From: Folioceros fuciformis
Lineage: Eukaryota
Direction of reading: 5' to 3'
Assembly: GCA_049999805.1 (NCBI GenBank)
Contig: JBNGIO010001013.1
Location: 1-35,877, forward strand
Length of the DNA: 35,877 nucleotides
Positions 7,293 to 35,877 of the stretch are shown piece after piece. The translations under genes and the position numbers were made by a program. Under the pieces are notes generated by a model. That model was not told the origin of the DNA. It searched no databases and saw nothing but the letters and a program-made list of their open reading frames with translations. Positions within the stretch are counted from its first letter, which is position 1, and the number at the start of each line of letters is the position of its first letter.

Positions 7293-9120
7293 CTAGGCAG
7301 GCACAAATCCGTCATTGCCAGCCAGCGCTTGGTACTTGTCCTTGCGAGTGAAGTTGGTACACGTGAAGTTGAGCGTAGCCCCCAGGAGGCGCTGGATATG
7401 GTTGGCAACGTGGATGGCGCTTTTGCCGCCAGCGCAGGTGAGCTCCGGCGGCAGTTGCTCCAGGAAAGTGACCTCGTAGACGGGGAAAGGGTTCATGAAG
7501 AAGTAGAATGGATCCATGCACTTGGAGCCCCGTGCCGTGGTGCCGTGGAACATGGACATTCGATTCTGCATAGCCACAGGCACGATGCGATCGGCCAGCT
7601 GCGCAAAGAGCGAACTGAAGCGCAGCAGGAAGGGCTCCCTGCAGGTGGTGCCTTCGGGGCAGATGACCAGGTCTCCCTCCTCCAGCAGCTTCTGGATTTT
7701 TGCGGCGTCGGCTTCGCGGTTGCGGTCGAGCGGCACGGTGCGGATGGGAGACAGGAACTTTGACATCCGAGAGATGGAGTACGTGACCGCCGTGACCGGT
7801 CGGCCCAGCGCCACGGACAGGAAGATGGGGTCTAAGAGGGTTCGATGTGAACAGGCGAACAGCACCCCTAACTTGTTCTCCCTGCTCCCCTTCCCCACGG
7901 CCGCCGGGGGCTTCCCATTCACCACGACCCGGATCCCCAACCACTTGTAGGCGACGCGATACAGGGACATGGGCAGCAGGCAAACGACTCCAATGCGGGC
8001 CACGGCGAGCAAGAACCCGAAAGGGGCCCAGAGCAGCGTACAGAGGGCCACGAGTGGAGTCGGCCTGCGCACCAGCCGTCCGTCGTGGAACACCAAGGGC
8101 TTGGGGAGTTGCTCCATCGCCACCGCCGGCACTAATCCATTACTTGGCACCATGTACGTTTCCTGCGCCAGGAGATGACATGACATGGGGGCCGTTCAGA
8201 GAACACCGGTTTAAATCAAACGCGCAGAGTGCATTGCGACGTGTAGCAAATTCGATCCTCCGCCGTGCTAACGGCAGACCACACTCTCAACCACTGCAGT
8301 GCAGCGTGCATCAGAAGAAATACCTGACAGAAAGACCTGAAGTACGAGTCCATCGTGCGGTCCCCGAGCCCGACGTCGGGCTGCCGGGCCCCGGGCGATA
8401 TGGCCTGCAGCCCCGAACAGTCCCTGACTCTGCCGAAATTCCCGAACACCTTCGCCATGGCCAGCGCCTTGAGCTTCCCGTCCAGCACCCCGGGCTTCTC
8501 CACGAACCCGGTGGTTCTCCTGCCGGACGTGGCCTTGATTTCGGTGCCGAGCACCGCGTCCGCCTTCAGATACTCCTTGGCGAAGTGCTCGACCATAATC
8601 CGGGGAACAGCAGTCACAACATACCTGCCATCACGGCAACCAAGCGCATTACAGAATTGAAGGACCTAACTGCTAGAGCCAGCATGTAGCAGGAGAAACT
8701 TGCAAGCAAGCGTCACTTCTCGCAGCCACAGTCTCTACACACACACCTCTTGCCGAAGGCGGAGAAGACGCGCCAGGTTCCGGAATGCAGATCCTCGATA
8801 TAAAATTTAGGCAGCACGGCGCGCGCCACCAATTCAATTTCTTGTACTTTAAGCCCCGCGAAGGTGATGAAGGTGAGTAGCTTGATCCCCGCCGTCTTCG
8901 ACACGAAACTGTCGAGCAGCCAGGCCAGGGGCGAGGCCACCAGGAGCGTTGCGGCGCGCAACACGCCGCCGGCCTCGAACGCCACAAGCATGTAGTAAGG
9001 GAAGGGGCTTGTGTCGCGAAGCAGCGTCCCTTCCAGGTTCGAGATCACGGTCTCATCCTCCCTGTGCAGAATGTTGCACTTCGTCATCTCCGGGACGCTT
9101 CGATTGTTCTCCGACTCCAT
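7293..9120 (-). CDS. GPAT: sn-2 glycerol-3-phosphate acyltransferase (HAD-like + PlsC domains), paralog A, ~514 aa, HAD motif I altered
   Basis: Exons 9120-8747, 8624-8324, 8162-7293. HRTLLD and CPEGT acyltransferase motifs present. Exon 1 is 374 nt, the same as in paralog B, supporting the ATG at 9120. Motif I reads SNLEGTLL. Confidence 0.92.
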
Positions 9121-10659: not shown

Positions 10660-12410
10660 CTAGCAGCCGGTTGTGGCCTTCTTGACGGCCACAGATCCGT
10701 CGTTGCCAGCCAGCACTCGGTACTTGTCCTTGCGAGTGAATTCAGTGCACTGGAAGGAGAGCGTGGAGGCCAGGAGGCGCTGGATGTTGTTGGCAACCTG
10801 GTGCGAGGTCTTGCCGCCGGCGCAAGTGAGCTCCAGCGGCAGCTGCTCCAGGAAGGTGACCTCGTAGACCGGGGAAGGGTTCATGAAAAAGTAGAAGGGA
10901 TCCATGCCCTTCCATCCCCGCGCCGTGGTGCCGTGGAACATGGACATGCGGTTCACCATGGCCACGGGCACGATGCGGTCCGCCAGCTCCGCGAAGAGCG
11001 CACTGAAGCGGAGCAGAAAGGGCTCGCGGCAGGTGGTTCCTTCGGGGCAGATGGCCAGGTCTCCTTCCTCCAGCAGCTTCCGGATGTTGGCGGCGTCCGC
11101 CTGTCGGTCCCGCGTGAGCGGAACGGTGCGAATGGGAGACAACACCTCCGACAGCCGGGAGATGGAGTAGGTGACTGCGGTGACTGGTCGGCCCAGCGCG
11201 GTGGACAGGAAGATGGGGTCCAGGAGCGTGCGGTGCGAGCACACGAACAGCACCCCCAGCCTGTTGTCCCCCTTCCGCTTCCCCACGGCCGCAGGCGGGG
11301 TCCCTTTCACCACCACTCGGACCCCCAGGCACCGGAAGGCGTAGTAAACCAGGGGCATCGGCAGCAGGGAACCTGCTGCGATGCGGACCACCGCCAGCGC
11401 GAATCCGATGGGAAACCAGAGCAGCGTCAAGAGAGCAATCAGCGGGGTCGGCCTCTGCACCAGCCGCCCGTCGTGGAACACCATGGGCTTCGGAAGACTC
11501 TCCTTCGCCACCGCCTGCACTCTAACATCGCTCGGCACGACGTACCCTTCCTGCGATGCCACGACACACGCGTGCTTATTGTGAGCGTGAACAATGAATT
11601 ATCGTTTCACCTCTCGGATTCGATCCCACGCCGTGCCGGCACCGGATAACAGCCTAAACCACTCCGCCGCACCGTGCAGCAGAAAACCACTTTACCTACC
11701 TCACAGAGCGCCATGAAGGGAAAATCAGTGGTGCGGTCCCCGAGCCCGACATCGGGCATGCTGGCCCCGAACTCCTTCACCATGGCCTGCGCCTTGCGCG
11801 CGTCCACCAGCACGCCAGGCTTCTTCACAAACCCGGTGGCTCTCCCCCCGCGCGTAACCTCAATCTCCGTTCCCAGCACCCCGTCCGCCTGCAGATACTC
11901 CGTGGCGAAGGGCTCGATCATAATGCGGGGATTCGCGGTCAAGACGTACCTGCCACCACCGCAACCAGATCGCAGAATGAACGATCCGAACCACAGACGT
12001 GCGCTCACTCGCAAACACGCACACGCACACACACACCTCTTCCCGAAGGAGGAGAACACGCGCCACGTCTCAGCGTGCAGATCCTCCGTATAGAATTTGG
12101 GCAACACCGCCCGCGCCACGGACTCGATGTCCGCGACCCTGAGCCCCGCGAAGCTGACATAGACGAGCACCTGAATCCCCGCCGACTCCGACACGAAGTG
12201 GTAGAGCAGCCAGGCCAGCGGCGCGGCCACAAGCAGCGCGGCTGCCCGCAAAACCCCGCCCGCCTCGAACGCCACCAGCATGAAATAAGGAAACGAGCTT
12301 CTCCCACGCAGCAGCGTCCCGTCCAGGTCGGAGATGACCGTCTGCTCCTCCCTGCCCACTGAGCTGCATTTGGCTACCGCGGGAAAGGGGCAATTGCACT
12401 GCGACTCCAT
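10660..12410 (-). CDS. GPAT: sn-2 glycerol-3-phosphate acyltransferase/phosphatase (GPAT4/6/8-like), paralog B, ~504 aa
   Basis: Exons 12410-12037, 11949-11700, 11550-10660. [56 protein letters not shown]. Confidence 0.95.
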
Positions 12411-15559: not shown

Positions 15560-28503
<12,944 letters not shown>

Positions 28504-32377: not shown

Positions 32378-32887
32378 TTCATATCCCGGCACAGACACGA
32401 ACCAGCGTTCTGAAGATGATATCTTTCGCGGGCTGATACTTTTGCCATGATTATGACTACTGTACATAAATCCAGTACAGATTATACAAACTTTCACGAA
32501 GCAAAATCGTATCTAACCCACGACCGGGTCCAAGAGTTAACTAGGGTTCCTAGGGTTCTACCCCGGACTAGGGATGAGGGTGCCAGGAAGTGGCCGCGAC
32601 CTAGGTATAAAACGGCGGCCTGTCCAACTCGGTGGCACAGTTCTTCGAGGCCACACAACTCAATCTTGCGGGTTGGAGAGCATCGAAGGTTGGCGGACTC
32701 GCAGGCTATTCTTCTCGGCAGGATGTTGATCGTTTTCCCACAATGTGGCTGCTTTCTCAATGGGCTTGAGCTCGCCTCATTTCCATCACCAAAGGAGGCG
32801 CATTGTGGCAAAACTACCAGCCTCCTTCCGAGACTCTCTCAGCTGACGTCGGCCCTCTTCTCCATCTTCAGTTCCTCGTCGAAGGAC

Positions 32888-32991
32888 CCGTCTATGGTCC
32901 AGTTCTTCTCTGAGGGGGCCGTGCAAGGTCCAGTTCCTCCCTGAGGGAGCCGTCCAAGGTCCAGTTCCTTTCAAGCAGCCGTCCAAGGTCC
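32888..32991. repeat. Degenerate ~31-bp tandem repeat x3.4 downstream of the Lsm11-like gene
   Basis: ccgtccaaggtccagttcct... units at 32888, 32919, 32950 and 32979. Confidence 0.8.
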
Positions 32992-33076
32992 TTCCTTGAC
33001 AGCGGGATCGTTGATGCACGGGAGTAAGGTTTTCGAACTCCGGATCTCGCACTGCATTCACATCGCCTGTTGGCCA

Positions 33077-33769
33077 TCACTCCAGCTTCCTTACCATGAT
33101 GATGCTGTCGCCTCTGAGAAAAATCTGATGCAAGTGCCTCCTGCGGTGTTCCAGTTTCGGGAACAGTCTGAGCTCCATTTCCGGCTCGGCATCTTGGTCT
33201 TGTGCGGTCGCTTTGCCCCGGCCCCGAACCCTTACCAACCTGGGTACTTTCCGCCTCACAGTGTATTCCTCGTCCACATCCCGCAGTACCAGGTTCATGT
33301 GCTTGTCCATGGCCTGGAGGTATCCCATGAGCACACCGCGCGGGCCCTTGCTGTGGCGAGTCCAAACCTGAACCCTTCCTCGCCGCCGGAAGCAATCCAC
33401 GAGCAGGGACAGCGGCCCGTGCTCCAGTTTCTCGGCCAGCACGTCCAAGATCTTCACCCGGCGAGCAATCTCGGCCGCCTTCTCCACGAGTACAGAGCTC
33501 CTAGCCTTGGCCCGCTCCTGCGCAGCCACCGATTCAGCAGACCGCGGCTGCTTGGTAGGCGCGTTAACCAGAGCCTCGGGGACCTCTTTCGGTAGGATCG
33601 CCCTGCACCTGTTGAGATTGTCCAGTGGTCGAACCCTTGGGTTCGGCGGCTGCAAGCCTTCCGTCTTCAGGGCTAGCAAGGGATCGAAATCCCATCTTAG
33701 GAAGACAAGACTGGCTGAACTCGCAGCAGCCTCTGCTGATTCTCCTTCCGACTGCGGCTGGGACTCCAT
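33077..33769 (-). CDS. LSM11: U7 snRNA-associated Sm-like protein LSm11 homolog, 230 aa, intronless
   Basis: N-terminal DFDPLLALKTEGLQPPNPRVRPLDNL (human [27 protein letters not shown]). Sm1 GPLSLLVDCFRRRGRVQVWTRHSKGPRGVLMGYLQAMDKHMNLVLRDVDEEY. Long basic/acidic insert, then Sm2 RHLHQIFLRGDSIIMV (human RHINQIFIRGENVLLV). Confidence 0.85.
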   Translation of the reverse strand: MESQPQSEGESAEAAASSASLVFLRWDFDPLLALKTEGLQPPNPRVRPLDNLNRCRAILPKEVPEALVNAPTKQPRSAESVAAQERAKARSSVLVEKAAEIARRVKILDVLAEKLEHGPLSLLVDCFRRRGRVQVWTRHSKGPRGVLMGYLQAMDKHMNLVLRDVDEEYTVRRKVPRLVRVRGRGKATAQDQDAEPEMELRLFPKLEHRRRHLHQIFLRGDSIIMVRKLE

Positions 33770-33782
33770 CGCCGTTCCGCGA

Positions 33783-33790
33783 TAGGGTTT
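33783..33790 (-). promoter_or_regulatory. Telo-box (AAACCCTA) in the 41-bp gap between the divergent LSM11 and mL41 start codons
   Basis: tagggttt on the + strand; telo-boxes are typical near the TSS of plant ribosomal-protein genes. Confidence 0.5.
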
Positions 33791-33810
33791 GGCGCATACG
33801 GAGGAGAACA

Positions 33811-34098
33811 ATGGTACAGCTGGGGCAGGCGATGCAGGCGCTCATGAACATCGGGCGGCGTGTGCCCAGCAGGGGCCAAAAGGTGCTCACCTCCAAGAGA
33901 GGGCCCAAGAATTTCTACAAGGGCAAGGGTTGCATCTCCACCGGCCGCCACACTCGCAAGGGAGGCTATCAGTTCATGGAGGAAAAGCTCCCGAAGTACA
34001 TAGTTCCTGATCTCTCCAACTGCAGCTTCAAGCCGTATGTGTCCCACGACACTCCTAAACTCGAGACTGCAGCTGCGGCTGCCGCTCCCAAGGAATAG
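33811..34098 (+). CDS. mL41: Mitochondrial large-subunit ribosomal protein mL41 (MRPL41/yeast MRPL27 family), 95 aa
   Basis: LTSKRGPKNFYKGKGCISTGRHTRKGGY...PKYIVPDLSNCSFKPYVS signature. Confidence 0.9.
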   Translation: MVQLGQAMQALMNIGRRVPSRGQKVLTSKRGPKNFYKGKGCISTGRHTRKGGYQFMEEKLPKYIVPDLSNCSFKPYVSHDTPKLETAAAAAAPKE

Positions 34099-34473
34099 CT
34101 AGCCAGTAGGAAGCCACCAGCTATAACTAGTCTACAATGCTCATGGAGCATGTCTCGCCTGCTTCAGAGATGGTCGCTACTTGCTGCTTTGCACAACGAA
34201 CTGAGGTTGTTGCACACACAAAGAGTTGGTTGTCACCATTGTTCTTCTTTTGTTAATGGACGAAGTGATTTTGTTAGGGTATGTTCCTGGTGTGTAGGTA
34301 CACGAGGGTTTGAAATCTGCATGCAAGATGGAAGTCGTGTCCAGGTCCTTGGGGGGAATTTCCATTGCCAACTGTTATCTGACAAGACCGGATCCAGGTG
34401 TATGCTTTGTGGTAGGAGGGCTGGGATGAATTCGAAAGTTCAACAGAGAAAATGGCAAAGGATGGGCACATTG

Positions 34474-35877
34474 CTAGCTGGATTCAAGGTCCACCTGACG
34501 GAAGAGGGCATTAAGGACTGAGTACAAGGGTGCAGCTGCCTTCGGTCTGGGAACAGGCCCGAAGAGGATGTCGTGGGCTGTAACACACGGGTCCCCGTAA
34601 AAGCGCGTGTTCATGGCATACCGTGTGGCAACTACATTTCCTTCCAGGGAACAGCCAACAAAGGCTCCTGCATCATCAAACGCAAGAAATAAGAGGGATG
34701 CACTTGTGGTGCTGGATGACGGTAGCTCACCTAACGGGCCTGAACGCTGATGTCAGAGCAGCCTTTGCTGCAGCTGTAGGTGTAACAGGCAGCTGCACCG
34801 CCGTCTCCAGCTCGCACGTCTGCCTCGGCGACTCTACCCACAAGCCCCACTGCTGCACTGAGGCCCGCGCCCATGGAGAGGTGGACGCGTCCTCCAAAGG
34901 CCTTTACTGCCCGCTTGGTTTGGAGAACGATGATGAAGTCCGTCAGTTCTCCGCCAACCTGCACTAGATAGAGACAGTTAGGGTACGAGGGAGGCAGGAA
35001 GCAGGTGCTGGGCGTGACAGTAGGGTGTTCACCTGGGGTCCCCATCCCAACCCGCAGGAGACTATGGCAGACGGTGAAGACCAGGAGCCGTCCACTCTGC
35101 GAGCAACCACGAGTCCTGTGCCCACCTTGTAGGTGACAACCACCCCTGCTTTGATCTCCGTGATGATGGCCAGTCCTTTGGCTCCTTTGAGCACAGAGTC
35201 AGGTATGGATTTCTCTGGTTCTAGCTTGCCGATCTGTAAAGGTTACAAGTACGTGAAGAACCGCTCGCGAGAGGAGACCACTGCAATGTAAAGTAGCCTT
35301 GAAGGCCAGAAGGTTTTACATCACCGGGGGATGATGGGAGCATGGAAAAGTGGCTTGGGAATGGCAGTGCTGGAAGGGAGCAAACCGGGAGCAGCACCTG
35401 GTCAGAGTAATTGCGAAGAGTGTTGGTGGCTTTGTAAATCTCTTGCTGCATTGATAGCCCTAAGGGGCTGTTCACCCAACCCCTCATGCAGCTGGAGTCG
35501 GTGACATCGTGAGTGGCAAGCTGCGAAGCGTTGCTCACACTGGTCATCAGTGTAGCCTGTATTGGTTCCAACCTCTCATAACAACTATCACAAACTCGTT
35601 GAGGATCCCTGGTCAGGAATCTGACAGGCAACAAGCAGCGGGTACTGGAGCATGAGCGACAGAAGAGGCCCCCACAGAAGCGGCAATGGTGCCTGCCGCA
35701 AGTGAGCGGCCGAAACGACTCACCGCATTGCATACACGCGAAAGCAGCGCTATCAGGCATCCACTGAGGCGGCCCTGTATCAAGCAAGGCTTTCAAAGCT
35801 GAGGAGCACTCATCCATGGCAAGGCTGAACCCCTTGCCCATGCCCTTTTCCTGTCTATCATCACCATCACCCGCACC
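34474..35877 (-). CDS. FYVE zinc finger + SYLF (Ysc84/SH3YL1 actin/lipid-binding) domain protein, probably 5'-truncated by the window edge
   Basis: WMPD...CMQC...RHHCRFCGGLFCRSCS...RVCDSC (FYVE); GTGLVVARRVDGSWSSPSAI, GWGPQVGGELTDFIIVL, GAFVGCSLEGNVVATR (SYLF). Exons ..35398, 35233-35033, 34958-34763, 34667-34474. Confidence 0.9.

Follow-up and report, generated by a model that had tools for sequence, protein, structure and literature searches.

The closest described systems to the gene analyzed here are the animal U7-type Sm-like protein LSm11, its relative SmD2, and a protein from the moss Physcomitrium patens that already carries the LSm11 name. The N-terminal domain of animal Lsm11, in a construct of residues 23-130, binds a dimer of FLASH, as described in PMC5636114, and Lsm11 together with FLASH recruits CPSF73, CPSF100, and symplekin, with the human Lsm11 helix 107-118 making contact with CPSF73, according to the account given in PMC12774660. 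For the green lineage, a preprint of October 2026 describes LSM10 and LSM11 homologues in green algae and land plants, and says that canonical histone stem-loops persist in bryophytes and gymnosperms (10.64898/2026.10.14.759114). In Genome Biology, a March 2026 paper reports that green algae, Physcomitrium, Adiantum, and Cycas have SLBP and stem-loop histone mRNAs free of poly(A), with loss in Selaginella and the angiosperms (PMC13130582). As for the RNA component, a 2008 survey considered the plant U7 candidates in Rfam unlikely to be real (PMC5054213), and we found no identified plant U7 snRNA in the published literature. SmD2 (e.g., PDB 1B34 chain B) has the same Sm fold and the same expected position in the ring as LSm11, and its solved chains in the PDB are 94-118 aa long, without an LSm11-type N-terminal extension.

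The window, i.e., the whole stretch of DNA that was analyzed (35,877 nucleotides), carries on its minus strand, at 33077-33769, an open reading frame of 230 aa. The ORF list and the translation agree that it is uninterrupted from the first ATG to the stop codon, as the first-pass annotation had described it; going upstream from this ATG, the frame meets a stop after 25 codons, with no other ATG on the way. The three LSm11 hallmarks that had been named for this frame are all present: FDPLLAL at aa 28-34, followed by the Pro-rich stretch LQPPNPRVRPLDN; GPLSLLVDC at aa 118-126, the opening of Sm1; and RHLHQIFLRGD at aa 211-221, within Sm2. The Pfam family LSM (PF01423) matches aa 146-227 with an E-value of 2e-10. 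Comparisons with the family were made on two alignments and the profiles built from them, one of 22 land-plant-type homologues (A1) and one of 40 diverse family members (A2). The parts of the gene are as follows.

33077..33769, minus strand: LSm11 coding sequence, 230 aa plus stop in a single exon (ORF, PDB match, unbroken transcript contig)
33668..33709, minus strand: N-terminal motif, aa 21-34 (A1 and A2; aligns to the human LSm11 N-terminus)
33590..33667, minus strand: second conserved N-terminal block, aa 35-60, ..LxPPxPxVRPLDNxxKCRxLLP (A2, profile match)
33428..33538, minus strand: predicted long helix just ahead of the Sm domain, aa 78-114 (AlphaFold model from A2)
33260..33418, minus strand: Sm1 region, aa 118-170, with the GPL..L..C lead and D155, H157, and N159 (aligns to human LSm11 Sm1)
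33161..33259, minus strand: variable Sm1-Sm2 insert, aa 171-203 (length variation, model)
33080..33160, minus strand: Sm2 region, aa 204-230, with R211, Q215, R219, G220, and D221 (A2 columns; human LSm11 Sm2)

Within Sm1, the residues G118, P119, R138, D155, N159, and E167 are invariant in A2. D155, N159, and the pair R219-G220, which we take to be RNA-contacting Sm positions, are conserved across the same alignment. Sm1, Sm2, and an insert between them are common to the plant protein and human LSm11. The insert had been called long in the first-pass annotation; an insert is indeed there, but at about 33 aa (aa 171-203) it is modest and shorter than that of the homologues in A1, and its length varies among the homologues in both alignments.

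Human LSm11 (chain D of PDB 6V4X, 8G1U, and 9NH5) was the best match to the protein both by sequence and by fold. When the single sequence was searched against the PDB, four human LSm11 constructs came first, with E-values of 4.3e-10 to 8.1e-10, and SmD2 followed at 1.4e-6 or weaker (42.9 bits for LSm11 vs 31.5 bits for SmD2). The A1 profile gave 3.4e-17 (66 bits) for LSm11 and 1.6e-11 (47.3 bits) for SmD2, and the A2 profile 3.9e-40 (141.5 bits) and 6.8e-18 (68.4 bits). SmD2, the next-best family, thus scores 11, 19, and 73 bits below LSm11 with the single sequence, A1, and A2, respectively, and the gap widens as family members are added. The identity as LSm11 proposed at first pass held in this profile check, human LSm11 beating SmD2 in all three PDB searches. 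A beetle protein, P0175, was found by the plant profile at 1.3e-26 and itself matches human LSm11 at 1.5e-17, with the N-terminal motif included in the match (18.3 bits); by these scores it links plant and animal LSm11. A search among shorter proteins that was aimed at SmD2 sequences returned 12 fragments, none of them named SmD2.

The predicted structure was then compared by fold. The AlphaFold model made from A2 (pLDDT 87.6, pTM 0.61) shows an Sm fold of a helix and five strands. It is preceded by the long helix at aa 78-114, which is basic, conserved in land plants (A1), and modeled with a pLDDT of 83-95 over its blocks. Much of aa 171-203 is modeled as an extended beta3-beta4 hairpin, with only aa 181-197 as loop. 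A model made from the 22 sequences of A1 was poor (pLDDT 61.2, pTM 0.29) and was set aside. When the A2 model was used in Foldseek, the top matches were Sm proteins, and human LSm11 chains occupied ranks 1, 2, 5, and 6. The best E-values were 5.0e-7 for LSm11 vs 6.7e-7 for SmD2; because SmD2 chains score almost as well as LSm11, the fold alone does not decide between the two families. This near-tie, together with the second place of SmD2 in every sequence search, is what speaks for the frame encoding a divergent SmD2 paralogue or some other LSm protein, and not LSm11. Such an assignment would have to accommodate the lead of LSm11 by 11, 19, and 73 bits, a 230-aa protein whose first 115 or so residues form an extension with homology to the one in human LSm11, when SmD2 chains reach only 94-118 aa in total, and algal and moss orthologues to which their sources give the name LSm11. 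We regard it as hardly credible, and the sequence comparisons support the ORF being LSm11 rather than SmD2.

The N-terminal extension is where the protein can best be compared with the FLASH-binding domain of animals. Family members and human LSm11 have a long extension that opens with LD-x-S-x2-FDPL-x-AL and continues into a Pro-rich stretch, and the family consensus reads LDFxSxxFDPLxAL....LxPPxPxVRPLDNxxKCRxLLP. Over the 40 sequences of A2, F28 and L34 are invariant, and D29, A33, L49, D50, and L59 nearly so; this region is the most conserved non-Sm part of the LSm11 family. Its N-terminal region alone aligned with the human LSm11 N-terminus in the A2-profile search (32.7 bits, i-E 5.1e-7), whereas the N-terminal 115 aa of the window protein alone, searched against the PDB, gave no matches. 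We assume that the LD..S..FDPL..AL motif is itself the FLASH contact. The plant protein also departs from human LSm11 in several respects: it is shorter (230 aa vs 259-371 aa in the PDB constructs), its insert is only about 33 aa, the CPSF73-contact helix 107-118 of the human protein had no aligned plant counterpart in the A2-profile PDB search, and in the motif of the window copy V stands for the D of LD and R for the S. A precomputed domain, PF28412.1, is tagged on nearly all LSm11 homologues and presumably covers this N-terminal region. Nine of the A2 rows (P0078, P0098, P0110, P0122, P0125, P0129, P0147, P0151, and P0160) form a subgroup with an extra conserved N-terminal block and a likewise conserved C-terminal tail, both of which are absent from plant and animal LSm11.

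Transcription of the locus was assessed from a sequencing run, X1, which holds 95% of the sampled words of the LSm11 gene and which its record does not class as RNA. Contigs from X1 skip 12 listed introns in the Snf2 and PPR neighbors (CT..AC on the plus strand, equal to GT..AG on the minus strand), and are therefore derived from spliced RNA. One unbroken X1 contig of 2120 nt lies on 32530-34649 and takes in the LSm11 ORF, about 550 nt past its stop codon, and the neighboring gene mL41. The LSm11 locus is thus transcribed without an intron, on a contig that is strandless and spans the divergent neighbor; the expression expected from the first-pass annotation was found, in this one strandless run. 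In X2, which stems from a related organism, a contig aligns to 33073-34071 with about 90% identity, and there too LSm11 and mL41 stand as a head-to-head pair. Two further features come from the X1 contig.

32530..33076, minus strand: transcribed stretch past the LSm11 stop (X1 contig; the contig of the PPR gene ends near 32423)
33693..33705, no strand assigned: cluster of 8 variants, the only differences in 2120 nt against the X1 contig

The first of these is probably the LSm11 3' UTR, by position, the contigs themselves being strandless. The second lies in the N-terminal motif. All 8 base differences between the window and the 2120-nt contig fall within these 13 bp, and in the direction from the window to X1 they translate into V22D, R25S, and W26K plus two silent sites. 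The window motif therefore reads L-V-F-L-R-W-D-FDPLLAL, and the X1 contig carries the consensus D and S. In the printed A2 alignment, the other sequences aligned at the position of V22 have D or N, so that the three deviating window residues beside the FDPL core, V, R, and W, take the place of the D, the S, and a variable residue of the family. The retention of the N-terminal motif, on which the first-pass annotation had built the idea of a partner still under selection, thus stands for the family, where both alignments show it conserved, but does not extend to the D and S positions of the window copy as assembled (V22, R25).

The 13-bp patch could be either a real allele or an assembly error. 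A 19-nt stretch that includes it occurs only once in the window, even with up to 3 mismatches allowed, so that no donor was found there, and no local repeat in the window would explain it. Since two of the 8 changes are silent, the patch looks like a diverged haplotype more than a typical read error. One could take the assembly copy to be an impaired or decaying allele with weakened partner binding, or the patch to be an assembly error with the consensus form as the true one; the crowding of 8 differences into 13 bp, with none elsewhere in 2120 nt, fits this, as does the fact that the X1 form restores the consensus (V22D, R25S) at positions where the other aligned A2 sequences have D or N at 22. 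It fits less well that the frame is intact with every other conserved column kept, that two of the changes are silent, and that the window has no donor copy of the patch. On balance we consider it very unlikely that the locus is to be understood in this way. A bolder side reading would see in the source strain a natural allele whose partner-binding motif is damaged, as an early step in the loss of the U7 module.

Homologues were collected in several searches. The first protein search gave 21 matches, at 49-72% identity to the window protein, and those that could be named came from Sphagnum, Ceratodon, Diphasiastrum, Ceratopteris, Adiantum, Cryptomeria, and Taxus, along with an entry with the prefix Gb_, which we take to be Ginkgo. 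The moss, fern, lycophyte, and gymnosperm matches share 53-72% identity with the window protein and span 87-96% of its length. None of the 21 matches is identical to the window protein, and the window gene may therefore be unannotated. An exhaustive search gave 1762 cluster representatives at E<=1e-3, 783 at 1e-10, and 65 at 1e-30. Ten high-scoring representatives were looked up; the six that could be named all come from green algae (Chara, Mesostigma, Chlorokybus, Myrmecia, Micractinium, and Coccomyxa), and the entry from Micractinium is called 'U7 snRNA-associated Sm LSm11' in its source database. Two proteins of streptophyte algae, P0025 from Chara braunii (1247 aa) and P0026 from Mesostigma (804 aa), carry the LSm11-like region within a much longer gene model, as for instance at residues 396-582 of an 'N-acetyltransferase domain-containing protein'; these long models are either real fusions or merged gene models. 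The 90% cluster of P0010 includes Physcomitrium patens XP_024359265.1 / PNR31934.1, to which the source gives the name 'U7 snRNA-associated Sm-like protein LSm11', and P0004 and P0019 come from two ferns, Psilotum and Pteridium. A profile search with 46 matches extended the family to oomycetes and one beetle.

The Physcomitrium LSm11 can be compared as a named plant protein: P0010, into whose cluster it falls, shares 56% identity with the window protein over 87% of the length and has the same precomputed domains PF28412 and PF01423. Physcomitrium is a moss, and the window protein falls into a clade apart from mosses. In a tree of 21 rows, from which P0017-P0022 (truncated, mis-modeled, or divergent) and P0025, P0026, and P0032 (long fusions) had been left out, the window LSm11 and the 72%-identical P0002 form a clade of their own with 98/99 support, inside a land-plant clade with 96/99 support. 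This clade is apart from mosses, ferns, gymnosperms, and Diphasiastrum, in a tree whose backbone is unresolved. Judged from the sequences, the window lineage is distinct from the sampled mosses, ferns, gymnosperms, and the one lycophyte, and it may belong to the liverworts or the hornworts. Presence across lineages, one of the checks foreseen at first pass, is thereby documented in green algae, mosses, a lycophyte, ferns, and gymnosperms. No angiosperm or Selaginella homologue was seen among the 21 matches of the protein search or the 46 of the profile search, an absence that is suggestive but falls short of proof, since in the profile search a candidate is scored only if it has words in common with the query.

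This distribution bears on what the protein does. The named LSm11 matches, present in moss, ferns, and gymnosperms and with none from an angiosperm or Selaginella, parallel the published spread of SLBP and of poly(A)-less histone mRNAs. The first-pass annotation had set the gene against the premise that histone mRNAs are polyadenylated in flowering plants. That premise concerns flowering plants; in the tree the gene falls among non-flowering land plants, and neither the protein search nor the profile search gave a homologue from an angiosperm. The first-pass idea that this lineage may retain a U7-type stem-loop pathway agrees with the 2026 literature on bryophytes, ferns, and gymnosperms. We consider it likely that the gene is the LSm11 orthologue of a non-flowering land plant, and that its product acts in a U7-type ring with LSm10, in the cleavage of histone pre-mRNA. 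By homology with animals, LSm11 would most likely take the SmD2 position in a seven-membered Sm ring, with LSm10 beside it, and this ring would sit on a U7-like small RNA. The long N-terminal extension would recruit a FLASH-like adaptor and the CPSF73 cleavage module, which would in turn cut replication-dependent histone pre-mRNAs after the 3' stem-loop and yield poly(A)-less histone mRNAs. The analysis itself shows the identity of the plant protein, its conservation, its open frame, and its transcription, while the ring partners, the small RNA, FLASH binding, and the histone targets are proposed from homology with the animal protein and from the published plant data. Within the window itself, neither LSm10 nor SLBP, a FLASH-like protein, a U7-like RNA, or a histone stem-loop turned up.

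A true LSm11 orthologue could also serve in another Sm-type ring or in a different 3'-end or RNA-processing role that is not tied to histone mRNAs. That no plant U7 snRNA was found in print and that no conserved counterpart of the human CPSF73-contact helix could be detected are both compatible with such a role, and a 2026 title asks whether the histone machinery is repurposed in differentiated animal cells (PMC13552480). It is at odds with the finding that, outside the Sm domain, conservation in the family is highest in the N-terminal region that shares homology with the FLASH-binding domain, and with the parallel between the spread of LSm11 and that of SLBP and poly(A)-less histone mRNAs; we therefore hold a role apart from histone mRNAs to be unlikely. 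Histone pre-mRNA cleavage in a U7-type ring is the function that we favor, and we lean, with less assurance, toward a wider form of it, in which non-flowering land plants run a complete animal-type U7 snRNP that disappeared along with SLBP at the origin of the flowering plants. The complete module would comprise the LSm10/LSm11 ring, a putative plant U7-like RNA, a FLASH-like adaptor, and CPSF73.

With LSm11 of Physcomitrium named in the database and LSM10 and LSM11 of land plants described in a preprint, land-plant LSm11 is already annotated and published. The window gene adds one further non-flowering lineage to the known keepers of LSm11 and supports the view now emerging that plants had stem-loop, U7-type histone processing ancestrally and that the angiosperms lost it. 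The practical value lies in LSm11 as a bait for a plant U7-like RNA; if the complete-module reading is true, the protein would be the handle, by RIP or CLIP, for the first plant U7 snRNA.

The rest of the window was searched for protein domains and for structured RNAs. Rfam returned no matches at gathering thresholds; with E-values of up to 1 admitted, a mir-74 match appeared at 24.5 bits against a cut-off of 57 and was taken as chance. The plant neighbors named in the first-pass annotation, i.e., a PPR gene, a GPAT gene, and SYD, are all matched by Pfam, the remodeler only to the level of SYD/BRM-like, and a FYVE gene is found in addition. The remodeler is a Snf2-type neighbor with SNF2, SnAC, and QLQ domains, which fits a SYD/BRM-like protein. 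A stop-to-stop frame of 1151 codons lies on the minus strand at 15560-19015, and the 1058-aa part of it that begins at the first start codon is without a Pfam match; located downstream of the SNF2/SnAC exons, it is probably a low-complexity C-terminal exon of the remodeler. The remaining features are as follows.

7293-8186 and 10660-12410, minus strand: two tandem GPAT-type genes (Acyltransferase; the second also HAD_RAM2_N)
33770..33810, no strand assigned: spacer of 41 bp that separates the divergent LSm11 and mL41 start codons (coordinates and pattern search)
33811..34098, plus strand: mL41, a mitochondrial ribosomal protein gene, head-to-head with LSm11 (Pfam MRP-L27, PF09809, E 1.2e-21)

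The pair of GPAT-type genes looks like a local duplication. The spacer between LSm11 and mL41 holds, at 33783-33790, the sole occurrence in the window of AAACCCTA, with 0.86 occurrences expected by chance window-wide; we take this to be the plant telo-box, an element presumably common at ribosomal-protein genes.
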